From NCBI GenBank assembly GCA_964016885.1, contig OZ024749.1:56296001-56360000 (forward strand): a DNA stretch of 64,000 nt, written 5' to 3'. The DNA comes from Eledone cirrhosa (taxonomy: Eukaryota). The position numbers were made by a program, and so were the translations under genes. Positions within the stretch are counted from its first letter, which is position 1. Each line of letters begins with the position of its first letter. A model generated the notes under the pieces. It was not told where the DNA came from, made no database searches, and saw only the letters and a program-made list of their open reading frames with translations. Positions 6,410 through 36,325 of the stretch are shown here, one piece after another.

Positions 6410-7136
6410 AAGCACAGCACAGCTCCCATGACTTTTTGAAACATTTTTTCATGCCCAGAGTTGCTGAAGCATGGAACAAACTACTTGCATCAGTTATTAG
6501 CTGTCAGGACACTGCATCCTTTAAAACCTCCATGGAACAAACTACCTGCATCAGTTGTTAGCTGTCAGGACACTGCATCCTTTAAAACCTCCATGGAACA
6601 AACTACTTGCATCAGTTGTTAGCTGTCAGGACACTGCATCCTTTAAAACCTCCATGGAACAAACTACCTGCATCAGTTGTTAGCTGTCAGGACACTGCAT
6701 CCTTTAAAACCTCCATGGAACAAACTACCTGCATCAGTTGTTAGCTGTCAGGACACTGCATCCTTTAAAACCTCCATGGAACAAACTACCTGCATCAGTT
6801 GTTAGCTGTCAGGACACTGCATCCTTTAAAACCTCCATGGAACAAACTACCTGCATCAGTTGTTAGCTGTCAGGACACTGCATCCTTTAAAACCTCCATG
6901 GAACAAACTACTTGCATCAGTTGTTAGCTGTCGAGACACTGCATCCTTTAAAACCTCCATGCTTCCTGAGATTTGCCAACACTACACCTAATATTCCCCC
7001 TCCATACACACTCACACGTGTATATATCATGACTCATACACTATTCACTTCCCTGACATTTGTATATTATTCTATCTACTATACATGCACCTTTGATGAG
7101 TTGTAGTGCACCTGAGCACTGTACACAATTTCATTA
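6410..7136 (+). mobile_element. CR1-like LINE 3' fragment with internal tandem expansion
   Basis: Encodes ..FF..RVAEAWNKL.ASVISC.DTASFKTSM, a CR1-type ORF2 C-terminal motif. The 3' UTR matches the inverted copy at 52280-52705. Confidence 0.75.
6470..6957 (+). repeat. 61-bp tandem repeat x8 derived from LINE coding sequence
   Basis: Unit CATGGAACAAACTACCTGCATCAGTTGTTAGCTGTCAGGACACTGCATCCTTTAAAACCTC starts at 6470, 6531, 6592 ... 6897. Confidence 0.95.
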
Positions 7137-9305: not shown

Positions 9306-10558
9306 CAGATAGCTACAGTGTTGTGAAGTAGCAGATAGCTACAGTGTTGTGAAGCAGCAGATAGCTACAGTGTTGTGAAGCAGCAGATAGCTACAGTGTT
9401 GTGAAGCAGCAGATAGCTACAGTGTTGTGAAGCAGCAGATGGCTACAGTGTTGTGAAGCAACAACAACACATAGCTACAGTGTTGTGAAGCAGCAGATAG
9501 CTACAGTGTTGTGAAGCAGCAGATAGCTACAGTGTTGTGAAGCAGCAGATAGCTACAGTGTTGTGAAGCAGCAGATAGCTACAGTGTTGTGAAGCAGCAG
9601 ATAGCTATAGTGTTGTGAAGCAGCAGATAGCTACAGTGTTGTGAAGCAGCAGATAGCTACAGTGTTGTGAAGCAGCAGATAGCTACAGTGTTGTGAAGCA
9701 GCAGATAGCTATAGTGTTGTGAAGCAGCAGATAGTTACAGTGTTGTGAAGCAGTAGATAGCTACAGTGTTGTGAAGCAACAACAACACATAGCTACAGTG
9801 TTGTGAAGCAGCAGATAGCTATAGTGTTGTGAAGCAGCAGATAGCTACAGTGTTGTGAAGCAGCAGATAGCTACAGTGTTGTGAAGCAGCAGATAGCTAC
9901 AGTGTTGTGAAGCAGCAGATAGCTACAGTGTTGTGAAGCAGCAGATAGCTATAGTGTTGTGAAGCAGCAGATAGCTACAGCGTTATGAAGCAGCAGATAG
10001 CTACAGCGTTGTGAAGCAGCAGATAGCTACAGTGTTGTGAAGCAGCAGATAGCTACAGTGTTGTGAAGCAGCAGATAGTTACAGTGTTGTGAAGCAGCAG
10101 ATAGCTACAGCGTTGTGAAGCAGCAGATAGCTACAGTGTTGTGAAGCAGCAGATAGCTATAGTGTTGTGAAGCAGCAGATAGCTACAGTGTTGTGAAGCA
10201 GCAGATAGCTATAGTGTTGTGAAGCAGCAGATAGCTACAGTGTTGTGAAGCAGCAGATAGCTATAGTGTTGTGAAGCAGCAGATAGCTACAGTGTTGTGA
10301 AGCAACAACAACACATAGCTACAGTGTTGTGAAGCAGCAGATAGCTATAGTGTTGTGAAGCAGCAGATAGCTATAGTGTTGTGAAGCAGCAGATAGCTAC
10401 AGTGTTGTGAAGCAACAACAACACATAGCTACAGTGTTGTGAAGCAGCAGATAGCTATAGTGTTGTGAAGCAGCAGATAGCTACAGTGTTGTGAAGCAGC
10501 AGATAGCTACAGTGTTGTGAAGCAACAACAACACATAGCTACAGTGTTGTGAAGCAAC
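9306..10558. repeat. 26-bp minisatellite (~47 units)
   Basis: Unit AGATAGCTACAGTGTTGTGAAGCAGC, with occasional longer variants carrying AACAACAACAC. Confidence 0.95.
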
Positions 10559-11822: not shown

Positions 11823-14026
<2,204 letters not shown>

Positions 14027-14297
14027 ATGTATGTATATGAATGTTTTTTATGTGTTTTACTTAAAACAAATGCACAACGTCCCCTCGTTTATAAACGAGA
14101 ATGTAGTTTAGTAGTTTAACCCTTCCGTAATTCAAACTTTACTACATTAACTGAATTCTCTAATTATCAAAGGAATGCCCCCCCTCCCCCCACTTCAGAG
14201 TTATATGATAACAAAATAAACCGATAAAATATTTGAATGTTGTAGTTTCCTTGAAGCATTGTGTATAGTTTATAATGTAGAAAATGATATACTTTAA

Positions 14298-21995: not shown

Positions 21996-22720
21996 ATATC
22001 TCTCTCCCTCCCATCTTCTCACTTTATATATCTCTCTTGCTTTACCTCTCTTTCTCTCTCACTTTATAACTATGTCTCATTTTCTATCTCTTTCTCACTT
22101 TATCTTTCACTCTATATCTCCCTCTCTCTCACGTTCTTACTTTATCTCTCTCTCTCTCTCAGTTTATCTCTCACTCTCTCATGTTATCTCTCTCTCTCTC
22201 TCCATATTTTCCTCACCTTGAAATACCTGACAAGAAAGTTAATGACAACACACCCAACTCTGTTATCTCAAAGATGGCCAATCTTATCCAGTGATTATTT
22301 ACATTTTATTTTTCTATAAATTCCTTTTTTATTTTCCTATTTCCACCTATCTTTAATATCAAAACATGAACAATCCCCCCCCTCTTACCTTCTCACCACC
22401 CACCACCACCTGAAAAATCAAAAATAATCAAATAAACAAATAAAACTATAGTCAAGTCATTATGAACATTCACTTAACAAACATTACAGTTCCATGTTTG
22501 GCCCCACCATGAACAAACCTTGGACAAGTCTCTTCTAATGTAACCTCAAATTTTCCAATAAGATGTGAGTATAATTTGGCAGATGGAAACTATGCTGAGA
22601 GCCCACTTGCATCACCACCATCGATGTTTTTACATCAGCTTTGCCACACTGACATGAAGAGAATGGGGTCTTTTTGAGGATGTGTTTTATGAGTAGTACT
22701 ATGTCTAATTTCTTTCCGTC

Positions 22721-23517
22721 TCTTGCCTCTCACCATCTCTCACCCCCACCACCCTGACTCTCACCTCCCTCTCTCCCATCATCTCTTGCCTCTCACCATC
22801 TCTCACCCCCACCACCCTGACTCTCATCTCCCTCTCTCCCATCATCTCTTGCCTCTCACCATCTCTCACCCCCACCACCCTGACTCTCATCTCCCTCTCT
22901 CCCATCATCTCTTGCCTCTCACCATCTCTCACCCCCACCACCCTGACTCTCACCTTGCTCTCTCCCATTATCTCTTGCCTCTCACCATCTCTCACCCCCA
23001 CCACCCTGACTCTCACCTCCCTCTCGCCCATCATCTCTTGCCTCTCACTATCTCTCACCCCCACCACCTTGACTCTCATCTCCCTCTCTCCCATCATCTC
23101 TCTTGCCTCTCACCATCTCTCACCCCCACCACCCTGACTCTCACCTCCCTCTCTCCCATCATCTCTTGCCTCTCACTATCTCTCACCCCCACCACCTTGA
23201 CTCTCATCTCCCTCTCTCCCATCATCTCTCTTGCCTCTCACCATCTCTCACCCCCACCACCCTGACTCTCACCTCCCTCTCTCCCATCATCTCTTGCCTC
23301 TCACCATCTCTCACCCCCACCACCCTGACTCTCACCTCTCTCTCTCCCATCATCTCTTGCCTCTCACCATCTCTCACCCCCACCACCCTGACTCTCACCT
23401 CTCTCCCATCATCTCTTGCCTCTCACCATCTCTCACCCCCACCACCCTGACTCTCATCTCCCTCTCTCCCATCATCTCTTGCCTCTCACCATCTCTCACC
23501 CCCACCACCCTGACTCT
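22721..23517. repeat. 63-bp pyrimidine-rich minisatellite (~12.5 units)
   Basis: Unit TCTTGCCTCTCACCATCTCTCACCCCCACCACCCTGACTCTCACCTCCCTCTCTCCCATCATC. Confidence 0.95.
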
Positions 23518-24432: not shown

Positions 24433-24839
24433 GTGGGGTAGAGGAATGATATACAGGTTAAATACAAGTGGCTGTTATGTCAGTAAATCAGAGCAACAGA
24501 CCTTCCCCTGGCTTGACATATCATATAATGAGAAGAAGTAATGGAGGCAGGAGAGAGATAGATGCTTTTTTTTTTATTTCTTGATATATTCCTTTTACCT
24601 GTCAACTGCATATTGAGACATCAGTTGGAGACAGGTACACACATACAAGCATAGTCAGACTTACATATACACACAGACATACACTCACACACAGACATAC
24701 ATGGACACATACAGACACACACACTCACTCACTCACACAGGCACAGAGTGAGAGAGGTACACACAGAGGTACACTGACATAGACAGACAAATGGACAGAT
24801 AGATATGTAGGTAGATAGATAGATAGATATGTAGGTAGG

Positions 24840-24873
<34 letters not shown>

Positions 24874-24875
24874 TA

Positions 24876-25345
24876 TTTCTTTATTAGCCACAGGGGCACA
24901 AAAGAAGGGGACAAATACAAAGGGGGAAGTTTACATACAATAAAAACGTGTAAAATGTTATCACAGATGGAATTTAAAAGTTAGTCGATTTTCCCCAATA
25001 GAGGGAGACAGTTTATATGGGTAACACAGACCCCCGAAAAAAAATGTGCAACCCTCATCTCCAGGAGTACGAAGAGCTTGTACTCCTTTCCTCTCCTCCT
25101 CCTTTTCCTCAACCTACAGGCTGATATAGAGAGAAGGCCCATTCACTCGGGCCATTCTCGCCACTTTCACCCACCTTTCATAAAACTTGCTGGGGTACAG
25201 CACCTCTCTCTCCATCCTGATTCTTCTTCCAAAGTGGTATTTGAAAAAAAGAATCAGTTGTTGGCCGGAGAGAAAGGTGTCTGACCTCAGCCCTTTCAAC
25301 CTTGTCCACCATACAACCTCTTTCGCCATAGCTATCACACAAAGG
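24876..25345 (-). mobile_element. 5'-truncated Tx1-like LINE, subfamily B (copy 1)
   Basis: Encodes the ORF2 C-terminus (..AMAKEVVWWTRLKG..GPSLYISL*) plus 3' UTR. About 6 differences from 31463-31933. (GATA)n on both sides. Confidence 0.92.
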
Positions 25346-25629
25346 TAGATAGATAGATAGATAAGTTTCTTTTATTTGCCACTAGGGCATCAAAAGTGGG
25401 ACAAGTACAAAGGGGGGGAGTTTACACAAAAAGGCGTCCTCAATAAGGAGGAGGCAATAACAAAATATAAAAATAAAATAAGATATAACAAAAAATAAAA
25501 TTTTTAACAAAATCCTCAATAGAGAGGAGGCGCCTTGGGGGGGTCGCACACACCCCCGAAAAAAGTGTGCAACCCTTTTCCTCAGGAGCACAGAGAGGGG
25601 GTGCTCCCTCGTTCCTTCCTCTTTTCCAC

Positions 25630-28600
25630 CTACAGGCTTATGTAAAGAGAAGGCCCATTCACACGGGCCATTCTCGCCACTTTCACCCACCTTTCATAAA
25701 AACGACTGGGGTGCAGCACCTCTCTCTCCATCCTGATCCTTCTTCCGAAATGATATCGGAAGAAACGGACCAGTTGTTGGCCAGAGAGAAAGGCGCCCGA
25801 CCTCAGTCCTTTCAGACGCGTCCACCATACAACCTCTTTCGCCATGGCTATTACGCACAGAAACACCGCCTCTGCTTCATCTTTGAAGGGGGGAGGCGGC
25901 TTGATCATTACAATAGACTCGGTGGTCAACCGGATCGGTCCCACCCTTGACAGCAGTTGTTCGACATAGCCCCACAGATCGGCTACGCCCGAGCAGTGTA
26001 CCAATGCGTGTGCAACGGTTTCCTCGTCGCACACGCATCTGGGACAGATCTTTTTGGCGGGGTCCCTACCCGGGCGCCCGTGTCTGTAGAGCCTTTCTCG
26101 AACGGGTAAAGCCCCTCGGTAGCACTGCCAGGCCAGGGACTTCTGGAAGTTGTCCATAGGTCCCGGGCTGAATGTCCTACCGAACAGGCTGGCCAGTTCG
26201 TCCTCCTCCATGTCTAGGGCTTCTCCGAGGGCGTCGTCGCACCTGCTGCGTACCAGCCCTCTATAGAATGTTGCGGTGGAGTCTCCACTGATAACCGGAT
26301 CCGCCTGCCAGAGGGCGGTGAGCGCCTGGGCACACTCAGTGTGCCAGGCGCCCAGTTTTCTCGGTCTCTGCTTGACCCAGGATTGCAGTTCGGTGAGTGA
26401 GACGAGTCTGGGAAAGGTTCGTCTCACAAACGGGGCCCACACCGGTTGTCCGGTGAGGAATACGTAGAGGTGCCGTAGCCTTAATGCGTGTTTACGCATC
26501 ATTAGCCACGGCATCCCCAGCCCTCCTTTCGAAGGGTGTTGACAGCAGATGGATCTCCTCACCATAGGAGCCCGCCCCTTCCAAAGGAATTGGAAGAGCG
26601 CGCGCTCCATCTTGGTGAGGGTTTCCCTTGGGCAGGGCACTACGGTCAGGCGGTAGTAGATGACGGACGCTATATAAGTGTTCGCCACCTCCGCCCGACC
26701 TTTCAGGGATAGTTTGCAACTGGCCCACTTCTGGGTCAGTGCAAACACCCTGTTCGTAACCTCCGCCCAGTTTTTCTCCACCTGGAGGTCCGGTCCGAAC
26801 CAGACCCCGAGCAACTTCACCGGGCCCTCCGTCCAGCGTCCGACGACGCCATCGGAAGGCATCGGTCTGCCCCTCCACGTGCCGAGTTGCAAACCGATCG
26901 ACTTGTCCCGGTTCAGCTTAGCCCCTGTGAACTTTTCGTACTCCTCCAGTAAGGTGCCGACCGCCTCGATTTCGGAGGCCGTCGACACCATTACTGTCAC
27001 ATCATCGGCGTAGGCTGACACCGCTTTCCGCAATCCCGGTTCCAAAGGGATGCCCTGCAACAACTCCAACTTCCGCAGTAGTGGCTCGAGAGTCAACACA
27101 TACAGAAGGGAGGAGAGAGGGCACCCTTGTCGGATGGACCGCGCGATTTTGAACGGCTCCGAGAGGTAACCGTTCACCTTGACCCTAGAGCAGATGCGGC
27201 TGCTGTGCATAGCAGTGATCCAGCCCCTGAAAACGGGTCCGAAGCCTGCCGCCGCTAGCACCGCATCCAGGTAACCATGGTCGACCCTATCGAACGCCTT
27301 AGATTGATCCAAGTTGATCAGAGCCCCACCAAAGCCGGGTTCGTTCCCAACCCTCTCTATGATGTATCGCATGAGGTGGAGGTTGTCATGGATGGACCTG
27401 GACGGGATAGCGCATGTCTGCGCATCTCCCACCAGGTTGCCCACGACAAGCGCCAACCTCTTTGCTAGCACTTTGGCCAAAATCTGTAACTCTGTATTTA
27501 GCAGAGTTATGGGCCTGAAGTTACTTATTTCGTCCCCCTTGTTCTCGTCCTTCCTCACTAGCGTGACTACGCCCTTGGTCACAGTACAGGGAATTCTCCC
27601 GTTCTGTTGCCAGTTGCAGTAGACCGCCTCGAGGAGATCGGGGAACAAGTCCGGCATAGCTAGATATAATTCGTAAGGAAGACCATCGAGACCCGGGGAT
27701 TTGCGTTTGCCGCATTGGCCCAGCACGTCCTCTATCTCAGCGGCCGAAATCGGCTCCTCGCAAGACTTCGCCTCCCTGTCCGAGAGGCGCGGCAGGCCGT
27801 CGAGGTATGGATCGAAGTCCACGTTTCCAACCGGCTCCCCGCCCCTCCCGAACAGTCGGGCAAAGTGCCTTTGAAAGGCCTCACACATCTGCTTAGGCTC
27901 AAGAATCGCCCGTCCATCCAGGTCTCGCAAAGACCGGATGGTGGATTTAGTTCCACTGTTGGCCTCTGTCACGCGGGCCCAGCTAACAGCTTTGGCCCCC
28001 TCGTTCCCTAGAGCACGTATTTTACTTCGGACAACGCAGCCTTCGTGCTTCGCGTCGAAAAACTGGCTCAAAGCCGTTCTCGACGCTAGCACTCTGGCCA
28101 CGTCGCCGCTTCTAATTGCCTCTTCTACTCTATCTATTAGCTCCCTTTCCTTCCTATTCCTATCCGCAGCTAGAACCTTACTAAATTCAATCGAGACTAC
28201 TCTAATCTCTCTCTTTAGAGATACCCACCACCTGCTGTTGACGATCGCTCCAGTCAACCGTTCCTTAACTAACGTACTAATCCGATTCCTGTAGGCTCTA
28301 CTTGCCGGCAAGGACAAGTTGAGCTTCCAGTAACCGGGGCCCTGTCTATGCGTTCTATCAAGGTTGACCATGCAGGTCACCAACTTGTGGTCTGAATAGC
28401 CAACCATGAGCATTTCTGGACAACTTAAAAAGTCCCTGTCCTTATTTCTAACTAAAAATCTATCTAGGTACGATCTAGATGATCCGCTGCGATTTGACCA
28501 AGACCAGGTTGGCACCGTCGGAAAATCTAGTCGAAATCTATCGGCCAGGTCAAATCGGCCGAGTAACCCCTTGAGGCTGTTGCACCCCTCTCTATCGGGA

Positions 28601-29067
28601 CATGCCCCTGCATAGTCCCAACGTGCATCCAGGATACCATTCCAATCCCCCACTAAAAGCAGGGAACGGGACGTCCCTAGAAAAGACTCCAGACGCTGGA
28701 AAAAGTCGGGCCGCTCTGTCCCAAAAGGGGCATATGCGGCTATCAGCCTAAAGGCTCTACCTTCACCACTGCCAAGGTCCAGCACCACCAGTCGACCCCC
28801 TGGGTCCAAGTGAACTATCTGTGTTGCAAGGCCCATATGTTTTTGCAGCAGAACGACAACCCCACCCCCACCTCCGGGCTGACAGAGAGATGCGTGCATC
28901 TCAAAGTCGTCAAAGGTGGGGGCTAGCTGTCGCATGCTGCTGATCCGGGCCTCGCAGATAACCATCACATTTATAGATTGTGACCTGAGGTCATTTAGAA
29001 GCATTGCTTGCTTCCAAGACGAGCCCAGGCCACGCGCATTTAGACACCCTACTCTTAGCACAGCCAT
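25630..29067 (-). CDS. LINE ORF2: apurinic-like endonuclease + reverse transcriptase + zinc-binding C-terminus (~1145 aa)
   Basis: APE motifs LNARG, ICE, YAP, GDWN, YLDRF, SDH. RT motifs KSPGLDG, FRPITLLN, LDQSKAFDRV, RQGCPLS, YADD, KLLGV. Zinc motif CPRC..ETVAHALVHC. First ATG at 29067; no stops. Confidence 0.95.
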   Translation of the reverse strand: MAVLRVGCLNARGLGSSWKQAMLLNDLRSQSINVMVICEARISSMRQLAPTFDDFEMHASLCQPGGGGGVVVLLQKHMGLATQIVHLDPGGRLVVLDLGSGEGRAFRLIAAYAPFGTERPDFFQRLESFLGTSRSLLLVGDWNGILDARWDYAGACPDREGCNSLKGLLGRFDLADRFRLDFPTVPTWSWSNRSGSSRSYLDRFLVRNKDRDFLSCPEMLMVGYSDHKLVTCMVNLDRTHRQGPGYWKLNLSLPASRAYRNRISTLVKERLTGAIVNSRWWVSLKREIRVVSIEFSKVLAADRNRKERELIDRVEEAIRSGDVARVLASRTALSQFFDAKHEGCVVRSKIRALGNEGAKAVSWARVTEANSGTKSTIRSLRDLDGRAILEPKQMCEAFQRHFARLFGRGGEPVGNVDFDPYLDGLPRLSDREAKSCEEPISAAEIEDVLGQCGKRKSPGLDGLPYELYLAMPDLFPDLLEAVYCNWQQNGRIPCTVTKGVVTLVRKDENKGDEISNFRPITLLNTELQILAKVLAKRLALVVGNLVGDAQTCAIPSRSIHDNLHLMRYIIERVGNEPGFGGALINLDQSKAFDRVDHGYLDAVLAAAGFGPVFRGWITAMHSSRICSRVKVNGYLSEPFKIARSIRQGCPLSSLLYVLTLEPLLRKLELLQGIPLEPGLRKAVSAYADDVTVMVSTASEIEAVGTLLEEYEKFTGAKLNRDKSIGLQLGTWRGRPMPSDGVVGRWTEGPVKLLGVWFGPDLQVEKNWAEVTNRVFALTQKWASCKLSLKGRAEVANTYIASVIYYRLTVVPCPRETLTKMERALFQFLWKGRAPMVRRSICCQHPSKGGLGMPWLMMRKHALRLRHLYVFLTGQPVWAPFVRRTFPRLVSLTELQSWVKQRPRKLGAWHTECAQALTALWQADPVISGDSTATFYRGLVRSRCDDALGEALDMEEDELASLFGRTFSPGPMDNFQKSLAWQCYRGALPVRERLYRHGRPGRDPAKKICPRCVCDEETVAHALVHCSGVADLWGYVEQLLSRVGPIRLTTESIVMIKPPPPFKDEAEAVFLCVIAMAKEVVWWTRLKGLRSGAFLSGQQLVRFFRYHFGRRIRMEREVLHPSRFYERWVKVARMARVNGPSLYISL

Positions 29068-29122
29068 GTTGGTGGTAAAGAGAAAAGGCACTTACCTCTC
29101 TGCGTCCCGGGAAACGGGCCGC

Positions 29123-30738
29123 TCAATTTCCATGCTGGTTGGGGATGGGTTGTTGGGTGGGGTTGTGGTTTGTGGAAGTGAAGGGGCATCGGTGTGTTGT
29201 GGGGTTGGGGTGTTTGTCGTTGAGTGGGTGTCTGGGTGAGGTGGGGGGGTGAAATTTTTTAGGAGGACGCGGTTGATTGGTTTGGCGCAGGGGGGGCCCA
29301 CGTCCTCCGTGAAATTTATTTTCAGTGTTTTGTACAAGTGCATTGGGACTTTTATCATTTTCAAATGAGGTAGTCCCACAGCAGTTATAAAGTTTGGCCC
29401 TTCGGTTTGGACCGAAGGGTTTGCTGAAATTGTTTTCCGTAATTCTTTGTTGTCTGTGTTCATGTATGTGTATTGTAATGTCTTTTTTTTGTGTAGCAGT
29501 TAGTGTTGTGTGACAGGGAGGGGTGGTTTGTGTGTAGTTTGTGTTCTCTTGGGGGGGGTTAAAGTTAACATGTGTGTCTGTGGTGCGTCTCCTCTTCTTT
29601 CTTTTTACTTGTTGGAAGGGATCTTTTTCGTCTTGCGACGAAAGAGGTTCGTCTTCCTTGTTGGGTGGGAGGGGTATGTTTTCTGGTAGTGTTTGCGGTG
29701 TGCGTGTTTTTGTATTTGTTTTGGGTGGGGAGGGATTGGGTGGGACAGTATTCTGTGTTATTTTTTCACGTGTTTGTTGTTGTTGTTGTTGTGGTGGTGG
29801 TGGTGGTGGGGTTGTTGGTTTTTGTTGTTGTTGTGGTTGTTTTTGTTGTTGTAGTTGGGGTGGTGTTGGTGTTGGTAGCAGTGTTTTTTTCTGTGTGAGC
29901 TGGGGACAGGCAGCCCTCAGGTGACCTCTATTGCCACAGAGGTAACAGGAGGGACGCCTACCCTCCACAATAATGTTGAGGTGGGTACGGTCATCCAGCA
30001 TGACGCGCTCAGGGATTTGGGCGATGCGTTCTGGCCTTATTTGGGTCAGAACTTCGAGGCTCGTTCCACTGAACGCGTCGCCGGATGCCTTCCCTATTGA
30101 GATGAGGTTGTCCTCGTCTAAATTGAGGAAACCGGTTAGTAACCACCAGTAGTTTATGTTTGGGGTGATGGTGGTTATCCATATCCTCTGGGTTTTTTTA
30201 CCCATGTAGGTGGGGAAGAAGGTGTAGTGTGTGGACCGAATTGGCGACACAGAGTATTTTTTTGCCGCCAATTCGTCTTTCATCAATATGGATAAACTCC
30301 CATAGAGTTTATCCTTTTGTATGAAAGTGATGTCTCTCATCGCGTCTTTCAAGACTAACTGAGTTTCTGCTTGAGATGGTTGCGCTGGTTTCTTTGTTTT
30401 ATTTAAAATTGTTCGGAATACGACAGTTCGTAATTCCGTCTGTCTTTTTAGCTCCGGAGGTGAATGTATAGAAAACGATCCGTTTTCGCCAAAAGACACA
30501 TATTTCTTGGCTTTTTCCAGCATTTCTTTTGCTTTTGAAATATCTTCCAGCACATAAGCGACTGATAATTTAGCCGTTTGTGCAAAAGATATTTTGTTTT
30601 CGTTTTGGATATTAGTATTGTTTTGTTTCTCGTCGTTTGAGTTGTTTTCATCTTTGTTGTTGTTGTTGTCTTTCTCGTTTCGTGTGTGGATACTTGTGAC
30701 GTTTGTGTTGTTGTTGTTTTTGCTGTCTTTATTGTTGC

Positions 30739-30769
<31 letters not shown>

Positions 30770-30946
30770 GTTTTCAAATTCTTGTGTAGTTGTGGCTACA
30801 TCTAGTGGTCGGTCAACAGGTGAAGACAATTCTTCCTCTCTCTGACCTCTGCCTTTGGCATCTGCTGCTGTGACAGTGGCAGGGGGAAGCTGTGAGTATA
30901 ACTTCCCCTTTCCTTCTTTGATTGATGGTGAGGATGCTTCAGCCAT
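29123..30946 (-). CDS. LINE ORF1 gag-like nucleic-acid-binding protein (C-terminus uncertain)
   Basis: Long open frame upstream of ORF2 with zinc knuckle CYLCGNRGHLRAAC, N-rich and Q/P-rich tracts and basic KRKKRRR. First ATG at 30946. Confidence 0.85.
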
Positions 30947-31171
30947 TTTTCTCAAAATAGGGTTTTTCGAAGTTTTTCGAAAGATAAAATGTTCACAATA
31001 CTATTTCGCCCAAAGGCGCAGAATATTTTGAGAGACCGACCAGATCAAAATTTGACCTGGCAGTCCCTCTACAAAATGATACAAAAATGAAAGTTTACAG
31101 TTTACAATTTCCGTATGAATTTAAACAAAAACTTACCGAGCGAGCTCAGCACATGTGTCCATCGTAGAGAG

Positions 31172-31172
<1 letters not shown>

Positions 31173-31220
<48 letters not shown>

Positions 31221-31246
31221 TGTAGATAGATAGATAGATATGTAGG

Positions 31247-31304
<58 letters not shown>

Positions 31305-31406
31305 TATAGATAGGTAGGTAGATAGATAGATAGATAGATATGTAGGTAGATAGACAGATAGATATGTAGGTAGATAGATAGATAGATAGATAGATAGATA
31401 TGTAGG

Positions 31407-31462
<56 letters not shown>
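31173..31462. repeat. (GATA)n microsatellite segment between LINE copies
   Basis: GATA repeats with GTAG variants. Further segments at 24785-24872, 25346-25363 and 32221-32245. Confidence 0.95.
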
Positions 31463-31463
<1 letters not shown>

Positions 31464-32220
31464 TTCTTTATTAGCCACAGGGGCACAAAAGAAGGGGACA
31501 AATACAAAGGGGGAAGTTTACATACACTAAAAACGTCTAAAATGTTATCACAGATGGAATTTAAAAAGTTAGTCGATTTTCCCCAATAGAGGGAGACAGT
31601 TTATATGGGTAACACATACCCCCGAAAAAAAATGTGCAACCCTCATCTCCAGGAGTACGAAGAGTTTGTACTCCTTTCCTCTCCTCCTTCTTTTCCTCAA
31701 CCTACAGGCTGATATAGAGAGAAGGCCCATTCACTCGGGCCATTCTCGCCACTTTCACCCACCTTTCATAAAACTTGCTGGGGTACAGCACCTCTCTCTC
31801 CATCCTGATTCTTCTTCCAAAGTGGTATTTGAAAAAAAGAATCAGTTGTTGGCCGGAGAGAAAGGTGTCTGACCTCAGCCCTTTCAACCTTGTCCACCAT
31901 ACAACCTCTTTCGCCATAGCTATCACACAAAGGAAAACCGCCTCTCCTTCGTTTTTGAAGGAGGGTGGCGGTTTGATCATGACAATGGACTCGGTGGTCA
32001 ACTGGATTGGTCCCACCCGCGACAATAGTCGTTCTACATAGCCCCACAGGTCAGTGACGCCCGGGCAGTGTATGAATGCGTGCGCGACGGTTTCTTCGTC
32101 TCGCACGCACCTCGGACAGATCTTTTTTGCAGGGTCCCTGCCCGGGCGCCCATGTCTGTAGAGCTTGTCTCGAACTGGTAGAGCTCCTCGGTAGCACTGC
32201 CAGGCCAGGGACTTTTGGAA
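31463..32220 (-). mobile_element. 5'-truncated Tx1-like LINE, subfamily B (copy 2)
   Basis: An open frame encodes the last ~172 aa of ORF2 (FQKSLAWQCYRG..CPRC..HAFIHC..YISL*), roughly 19 substitutions relative to subfamily A. (GATA)n on both sides. Confidence 0.92.
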
Positions 32221-32655
32221 TAGATAGATAGATAGATAGATAGACAGGAGATATACACATATAAAGAAATGCTTATGAATATAACTGTATAACATGACAT
32301 GTATGCAGAGAGCGGCAGGGAAACAGGTAGAGTTACAGGGAAACAATGGCATATATGTTTTACCTGCATAAATATATACAAGTGAAGGAGGGGGTAGTAA
32401 TATATATATATTAATACCCCCTACTCCACTTGTATATATATATATAACAAGAAGTGTAAGTCAACAGGTTAAAATTAACCTTGTTTATACATATTCGCTG
32501 TTATATATATTTCGTATATATATATTAAAAGTGATTTAACAGCTTATTTCTTCATCTTTATATTTGATTATATATATATATATGTATGTGTATATATATA
32601 TATAGAGAGAGAGAGAGAAAGAGACAAATATAGACATATATATATATATATATAT

Positions 32656-35304: not shown

Positions 35305-35743
35305 GATCTCTACACAAATCACCACATAGATGTCCCCATCTCTACACAAATCACCACATAGATGTCCCCATCTCTACATATATCACCACATAGATGTCTC
35401 TATATCTACACATATCACCACATAGACGTCTATCTCTACACATATCACCACATAGATGTCCCCATCTCTACACATATCACCACATAGATGTCTATCTCTA
35501 CACATATCACCAGATAGATGTCTCTATATCTACACATATCACCACATAGATGTCCCCATCTCTACACATATCACCACATAGATGTCTATCTCTACACATA
35601 TCACCAGATAGATGTCTCTATATCTACACATATCACCACATAGATGTCCCCATCTCTACACATATATCACCACATAGATGTCTATCTCTACACATATCAC
35701 CACATAGATGTCCCCATCTCTACACATATATCACCACATAGAT
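35305..35743. repeat. ~30-bp minisatellite
   Basis: Unit approximately ATCACCACATAGATGTCCCCATCTCTACACAT. Confidence 0.9.
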
Positions 35744-35799
35744 GGTATATATTCATGGCTGGAATTCTTTATCAAACATCAGTCTGTTTGATAAGGGTT

Positions 35800-36325
35800 A
35801 AACTGGGACTCAACAACAACAACAAACATAGGTTTACTTGATCAGAGATCAGAGATGAACTGGGACTCAGGAACATCAGGATTAGCTAAACATAGCTCTA
35901 CTTGATCAGAGATCAACTGGGACTCAGGAACAACAGGATTAACAAACATAGGTCTACTTGATGAGAGATCAACTGGGACTCAGGAACAACAGGGTTAACA
36001 AACATAGGTCTACTTGATCAGAGATCAACTGGGACTCAGGAACAACAGGATTAACAAACATAGGTCTACTTGATCAGAGATCAACTGGGACTCAGGAACA
36101 ACAGGGTTAACAAACATAGGTCTACTTGATCAGAGATCAACTGGGACTCAGGAACAACAGGATTAACAAACATAGGTCTACTTGATCAGAGATCAACTGG
36201 AACTCAGGAACAACAGGGTTAACAAACATAGGTCTACTTGATCAGAGATCAACTCGGACTCAGGAACAACAGGGTTAACAAACATAGGTCTACTTGATCA
36301 GAGATCAACTCGGGCTCAAGAACAA
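35800..36325. repeat. 56-bp minisatellite (~9 units)
   Basis: Unit GATCAACTGGGACTCAGGAACAACAGGATTAACAAACATAGGTCTACTTGATCAGA. Confidence 0.92.

Follow-up and report, generated by a model that had tools for sequence, protein, structure and literature searches.

The 64,000-nucleotide stretch of Eledone cirrhosa DNA analysed here (the window; assembly GCA_964016885.1, contig OZ024749.1, positions 56,296,001 to 56,360,000) lies on contig C9 of a microsatellite-rich genome of 3.0 Gb and carries three copies of a long interspersed nuclear element (LINE) arranged head-to-tail within a (GATA)n microsatellite. The cluster likely arose by separate insertions of a young LINE of the L1/Tx1 type, which enters DNA at C|TATCT, mostly in (GATA)n, by means of an endonuclease (EN) that nicks the GATA strand at 5'-AGATA/G-3'. 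The target preference is directly visible in the flanks of copies sampled across the genome, and the insertion footprints suggest that the endonuclease controls the targeting and that the family seeds its own target through a 5' leader.

All three copies lie on the minus strand, in the lengths given by the original prediction from the window sequence (470 bp, 5.8 kb and 758 bp), and the mapped arrays and spacer, to which no strand is assigned, place all six junctions at (TATC)n/(GATA)n as it had claimed. A (GATA)n array with 24-bp interruptions of the ATGTAGGT type (24779..24873) forms the 3' flank of copy A, a 5'-truncated element of 470 bp (24876-25345) that spans 24874..25345 with its two variable terminal bases TA. 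Between the 5' end of A and the 3' end of copy B there is a (GATA)n spacer of 18 bp (25346..25363), which matches a long target-site duplication in length. Copy B is full length (5.8 kb, 25366-31167; feature 25364..31167) with the terminus AATAAAAGAAA-CT and no poly(A), and a CTCTCT leader that likely derives from the element (31168..31173, minus strand) links its 5' end to a further (GATA)n array (31174..31460) interrupted like the left one. This array reaches the 3' end of copy C, again 5'-truncated (758 bp, 31463-32220; 31461..32220 with its terminal bases TC), whose 5' flank is (GATA)6 (32221..32244). Copies A and C belong to subfamily C and copy B to subfamily B. The predicted poly(A)-free ends running into the repeat were found, with two copy-specific bases intervening: each copy terminates in AATAA(A)AGAAA, then TA, CT or TC (A, B and C respectively), then TATCT.

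Copies B and C share 82.9% nucleotide identity (642 bp) and differ at 19 of 172 amino acids, in line with the earlier assignment of the long copy to a separate subfamily. The two short copies are 98.7% identical, with 5 mismatches and 1 gap in 471 columns (about six differences had been noted), and have unlike truncation points and unlike bases after GAAA. Copy A is 100% identical to a copy on contig C12 (locus L150), and its search returned 28 other loci, the best match at each being 99.8-100% identical to it. Since copy A is closer to copies elsewhere than to its neighbour C, the sequence comparison supports three independent insertions, as originally proposed. The B-A spacer equals the longest clear duplication (18 bp) and A may therefore have inserted directly at the 3' junction of B, the reverse order also being possible.

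For the genome-wide sample we took the top hits to the 3' end of C, the 5' end of B, the 3' end of B and copy A, with 30 loci each of 40 scored (705-1831 candidates behind the samples), and fetched longer stretches where needed. After AATAAA-GAAA and two further bases the sequence continues with TAT in all 120 distinct copies, namely TATCT in 110 and TATAT in 9, and poly(A) follows the 3' end in none of the 120. The two bases are CT in 61 copies, TA in 47, TC in 7, CA in 4 and CC in 1, and all copies have one orientation relative to TAT(C)T. The match to (TATC)n beyond the end measures five bases or fewer in 18 of the 120 copies, and the 3' flank tracks the local target DNA, be it (CTAC)n, (TA)n or unique. 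Because no more than TAT or TATCT follows the end of copies at imperfect sites, the 3' repeat is target DNA and not a fixed tail.

At the 5' side a junction was scored as TATC when at least 10 of 12 bases matched (TATC)3. By this test 48 of 60 resolved truncation points lie at (TATC)n (18/21, 14/22 and 16/17, counted by hand; 3 of the 48 passed after a short internal jump was bridged). The window copies, 12 full-length copies, L089 (the same element as L104) and 11 unresolved copies (L008, L075, L154 and 8 running off the locus) stand outside this count, and three neighbouring pairs were each counted once. As a random control, 0.45% of 398,800 positions passed the test. In 200,000 random bases (TATC)n of at least three units covers 40 bases and (TA)n covers 9,172 bp, about 230 times more, and despite this abundance (TA)n sites take just 9 of the 120 insertions. 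The 5' repeats are bounded by non-element DNA in many copies (e.g. L012, L014, L016, L018, L087, L158 and L161), and in contigs of public short reads internal positions of the element are joined to GATA in 10 of the 12 rows listed (one run may be the assembly's own sample). For target-sequence preference, the accessible part of PMC4494074 takes more than 20% of flanks as its measure; both the 3' flanks with TATCT and the 5' truncation points at TATC lie above it. The tabulated flanks of the sampled copies do not have the mostly non-GATA 5' junctions that had been named beforehand as the outcome contradicting a (GATA)n-specific family. Such specificity was thus borne out, with the target refined to C|TAT(C>A)T, for which (TATC)n is optimal while (TA)n and unique DNA are tolerated.

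Target-site duplications could be read at imperfect sites, where they measure 8-18 bp and nearly all start with TAT after C (mostly C|TATCT). Those of 8-11 bp include TATCTTAG at L064, TATATTTCA at L084, TATCTGTT at L083 and TATCTATTA at L065 as well as those at L150 and L172, and longer ones occur at L108 (12 bp) and L114 (18 bp). Together with the 5' truncation, seen as 3'-biased read depth, they are hallmarks of target-primed reverse transcription. As the duplications start with TAT after C, the first nick would fall at 5'-AGATA/G-3' on the GATA strand, with an ambiguity of up to 3 bases since the RNA may end in UAU.

The 5' ends of full-length copies carry a further footprint. TATC is found there in 38 of 39 full-length B copies, and the duplication is separated from the element's first base by extra TATC/CT leader bases that are not in the target. 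The leader has 11 nt at L114 and 14 nt at L108, the latter matching the 3' end of the previous copy; L098 has a TATC leader of 18 nt though it is inserted in (TA)n, and L101 and L104 also carry a leader foreign to their target. Five copies, spread over four contigs and mutual nearest kin 1-2 substitutions apart, share a TAAT variant of the leader (2 changes on the tree, for which no shuffle control was printed). Since this 5' TATC is partly element-borne, the flanks upstream of full-length copies do not count as independent evidence of targeting. The simplest reading is that the leader would be inherited by transcription starting upstream in the donor repeat, and the target would be regenerated by the duplication plus this co-transported leader.

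In the mechanism we propose, the endonuclease would nick the GATA strand at 5'-AGATA/G-3' and the nicked end would prime reverse transcription on an RNA ending in ...GAAA-NN(-UAU), 3-4 bases of pairing being of help. A second nick 8-18 bp downstream would produce the duplication. The transcript would begin upstream, in the donor's repeat or in the end of the previous copy, and a piece of target would be copied along. Insertion would leave TATC at both sides and invite the next insertion, from which head-to-tail trains of different subfamilies would follow.

The strongest alternative, which we regard as unlikely, is that the RNA leads the targeting, a transcript read through into (UAUC)n annealing to GATA ends that come from a relaxed endonuclease or from pre-existing breaks. 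The invariant TAT after the 3' end, the lack of poly(A), an extra unit at L021 and an endonuclease loop of L1 length are all in accordance with it. However, the inherited pairing would amount to 3-5 bases at most, as copies at imperfect sites have no more of the repeat than TAT or TATCT; UAU would pair just as well with the (TA)n that is about 230-fold commoner; and the base preceding the duplication, mostly C, lies beyond the pairing region.

Several observations nevertheless weigh against endonuclease-directed insertion into (GATA)n with an inherited leader. Of the 60 truncation points, 12 do not pass the TATC test. Three of these sit in unique DNA with a TAT(C/A)T duplication, two are in (TA)n sites, one has its TATC 32 bp upstream, and at the remaining six (L004, L019, L070, L080, L082 and L175) nothing of the kind is seen. 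The full-length copy L079 has no TATC at its 5' end, and L021, with one extra TATC unit at its 3' end, indicates that some tail slippage occurs. The samples are biased to young relatives because they are the top-scoring hits to the window copies. The apparent inheritance of the leader draws on about 5 informative loci. The hairpin loop of the endonuclease, conserved across the GATA subfamilies, has 9 residues as in the promiscuous L1-EN, versus 11 in Tx1L-EN (accessible part of PMC1950540), and the specificity could stem partly from RNA-DNA pairing.

It seems very improbable that the cluster came about by local duplication or by an error of assembly. None of the public short-read contigs from 4 runs spanned it or showed an empty allele, so its assembly is supported only indirectly, and neighbours elsewhere with the same truncation point and 99.7-100% identity (L155, L165/L166) tell us that local duplication does happen in this family. 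Yet copy A matches copies at 28 loci better than it matches C, A and C are truncated at different points and have different terminal bases, B is of another subfamily and the pattern is repeated on many contigs. Hardly credible is the idea that (TATC)n is merely a 3' tail and that the 5' repeats stem from tails of earlier copies or from chance. Many 5' repeats do come after the 3' end of another copy, but many others are bounded by non-element DNA and the 3' flank varies with the local target. Moreover, an RTE-type family with a real (TGA)n tail, found by protein query (a DNA-level search for it gave no matches), has TATC at 0 of 19 5' junctions and no matching 5' repeat (rows L222 and L228 lie near the locus edge). 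We consider the tail reading refuted by the TATC-positive 5' junctions and the readable duplications. Random insertion followed by selection or gene conversion that spares only copies in GATA arrays is just as implausible: microsatellites are plausibly neutral sites, but copies 1-2 substitutions apart in 5.8 kb are already in TATC, far commoner and equally neutral repeats are little used, and strand and phase are fixed.

The second open reading frame (ORF) of copy B, ORF2 (25630..29067, minus strand), is uninterrupted and encodes 1145 amino acids with an N-terminal apurinic/apyrimidinic endonuclease-type (APE) domain, a reverse transcriptase (RT) and a C-terminal CCHC-type zinc finger (Exo_endo_phos 7e-7, RVT_1 5e-26, zf-RVT 3e-5). 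The catalytic motifs of EN and RT are intact; a single-sequence fold of the endonuclease reached a mean pLDDT (predicted local distance difference test) of 37 and was not used. The ORF1 region (29092..30946, minus strand) has one CCHC knuckle, weak at E 0.0027 and below the Pfam cut-off for zf-CCHC, a predicted RRM-like core and N/Q/P-rich linkers, with Atlas matches of 0.90-0.92 to CCHC/RRM clusters. Its frame is off by one base relative to the siblings at an A-run near 29482-29490, where 19 of 19 siblings matching the motif have one A fewer; the extra base is also missing from most of the depth in short-read run X1, and the shift reflects a mutation or else a homopolymer error. In siblings ORF1 stops at a TAA (29092-29094) in frame with the ORF2 ATG and 24 nt before it, and both ORFs are open and in one frame in 18 of 39 full-length B copies. 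A splice-donor-like GGTAAGT overlaps the ORF1 stop codon (29090-29096, minus strand), and a second one lies about 30 nt into the 5' untranslated region (UTR) of B, after an ATG (~31132-31138, minus strand). As this second motif is absent from the matching place in subfamily C, we claim no role for it.

The ORF2 architecture makes the element a member of the L1 group of non-LTR (long terminal repeat) retrotransposons. In the PDB, human L1 ORF2p matched with an E of 1.8e-48 over 7-857 and R2 with 6e-19 over the RT only, the stronger match indicating that the RT is nearer to L1 than to elements of the R2 type. Among named relatives, the RT closest to it comes from the octopod Argonauta hians (67%), which points to an octopod host. 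An RT tree of 28 rows, from which the RTE row had been removed because its overlap was too short, groups the element with the Argonauta protein (100/100), then with unnamed proteins, and places it beside the RTs of turtles and fish (87/89, unstarred) and away from plant L1s; the rows included no named Tx1 reference. A Type I ORF1 (RRM plus CCHC) is described as consistent with Tx1 in the accessible part of PMC5203782; the single knuckle of copy B stays below the cut-off. The element probably belongs to Tx1. A cluster look-up gave no name for any close homologue. A metagenome scan returned 34 distant loci (24-48% identity, best segment) with no GATA run in the 22 inspected, at a distance that is uninformative for close kin.

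Two subfamilies had been recognised in the window, and the cluster does hold B and C, but genome-wide at least four share the GATA target and form head-to-tail trains, and at least six 3'-end variants have the same target. One train on contig C1 (G000:C1:22,191,500-22,214,400; L376-L380) has four full-length copies of four subfamilies with (TATC)n spacers. The genome contains 127,148 overlapping matches to (TATC)8. Among the first 18 (TATC)8 arrays on C1, 8 directly adjoin recognised copies, which share one orientation, and another one adjoins an apparent related 5' end. The arrays that come next are the spacers of the four-subfamily train. A mosaic subfamily (L197, L199, L203) has a 3' half 98-99% identical to copy B and a 5' UTR/ORF1 only 67-75% identical, which resembles the promoter/ORF1 replacement of mammalian L1. 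Neighbouring copies with the same 5' truncation point occur at L020, L025, L155, L163 and L165/L166; some are 99.7-100% identical, as in local duplication, and those at 95-98% possibly arose by homology-guided 5' joining to the neighbour.

An older sister family with 57-73% amino acid identity has the terminus AATAAAGAAA-NN-(ATT)n in most copies (L284, L289-L291, L303, L305, L307-L336). Its resolved 5' ends lie in (ATT)n in 4 of 13 cases versus a background of 1.1%, and in TATC in 0 of 13. This suggests, less firmly, a target switch between (TATC)n and (ATT)n in sister lineages. A bolder scenario, on which our judgement falls somewhat to the doubtful side, is that a cephalopod LINE lineage recognises and makes its own microsatellite: full-length insertions would import TATC units, the family would have built or saturated about half of the long GATA arrays, and its sisters would have switched between (TATC)n and (ATT)n.

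Human LINE-1 resembles the GATA family in its two ORFs, variable target-site duplications and 5' truncation, and is the best solved-structure match over EN and RT; its target is TTTT/AA whereas the GATA family uses AGATA/G, lacks poly(A) and has a CCHC-type ORF1. Squamate microsatellite-seeding LINEs carry their repeat as a 3' tail without targeting it, whereas in the GATA family the repeat is the target and the added units stand at the 5' end. In squamates, as would be the case for the GATA family, a LINE raises repeat abundance (accessible part of PMC6050309). Tx1 and R1 are target-specific APE clades (accessible part of PMC4640811). Tx1L of Xenopus likewise has an APE endonuclease with a defined target, sequence-specific in vitro, but it inserts into a DNA transposon, and the hairpin loop of its EN is the longer one noted above (accessible part of PMC1950540). 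Kibi and Koshi of the teleost Tx1 clade and the crocodilian Tx1-1_Crp group are, like the GATA family, APE-type LINEs in microsatellites, but their targets are pure pyrimidine repeats in vertebrates as opposed to the mixed (TATC)n/(GATA)n (accessible text of PMC4494074). There, Koshi targets (TTC)n as the original prediction had stated, Kibi by contrast (TC)n, and the crocodilian group (TTCC)n/(TTTC)n; with its (TATC)n target our family acts like Kibi and Koshi but is not filed under them. The same text makes no mention of a co-transported 5' repeat leader or multi-subfamily trains for these elements, nor of GATA or TATC, its supplements and its Fig. 3 of known Tx1 targets being outside the comparison. 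Togen (NeSL-related, (TG)n) and some HERO families are likewise microsatellite-specific non-LTR elements, but have a restriction-like endonuclease and belong to another group (accessible part of PMC4640811). Thirteen recently active L1-Tx1 families are reported from Octopus vulgaris, and the words "target" and "GATA" are absent from the accessible account of them (PMC13282606). A literature search, with Repbase outside its scope, found no GATA-targeting LINE; an already named family may exist.

To the known microsatellite-targeting Tx1-type LINEs our work adds an invertebrate family, very young and high in copy number, that targets (GATA)n, with readable insertion footprints and a likely 5' read-through that would re-seed the target. 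The sister family on another repeat offers a natural pair in which one could test what determines endonuclease specificity. In practical terms, a GATA microsatellite marker in this genome will often be a LINE junction, and different loci may have flanks in common.

Other repeats were met on the way. An RT fragment of this lineage next to TATC in a random stretch (L130:6600-7900), which could pass for a blind confirmation, rides in a composite repeat common to many loci and was not counted; this repeat (L277-L306), presumably Helitron-like, has a hairpin-CTAG-like terminus. A different repeat beginning TTGATAGAGT(A/G)AGACACGC also starts directly after TATC runs (L156, L157, L160, L362). The RTE-type LINE with the (TGA)n tail is young and very abundant, with 155,708 first-look candidates, and often sits in (TA)n (L143, L213-L242). 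The window itself further contains homogeneous minisatellites with units of 61, 26, 63, 32 and 56 bp (6470-6961, 9306-10524, 22719-23517 and 35306-36325) and a (TA)n array of 2.2 kb (11827-14038).

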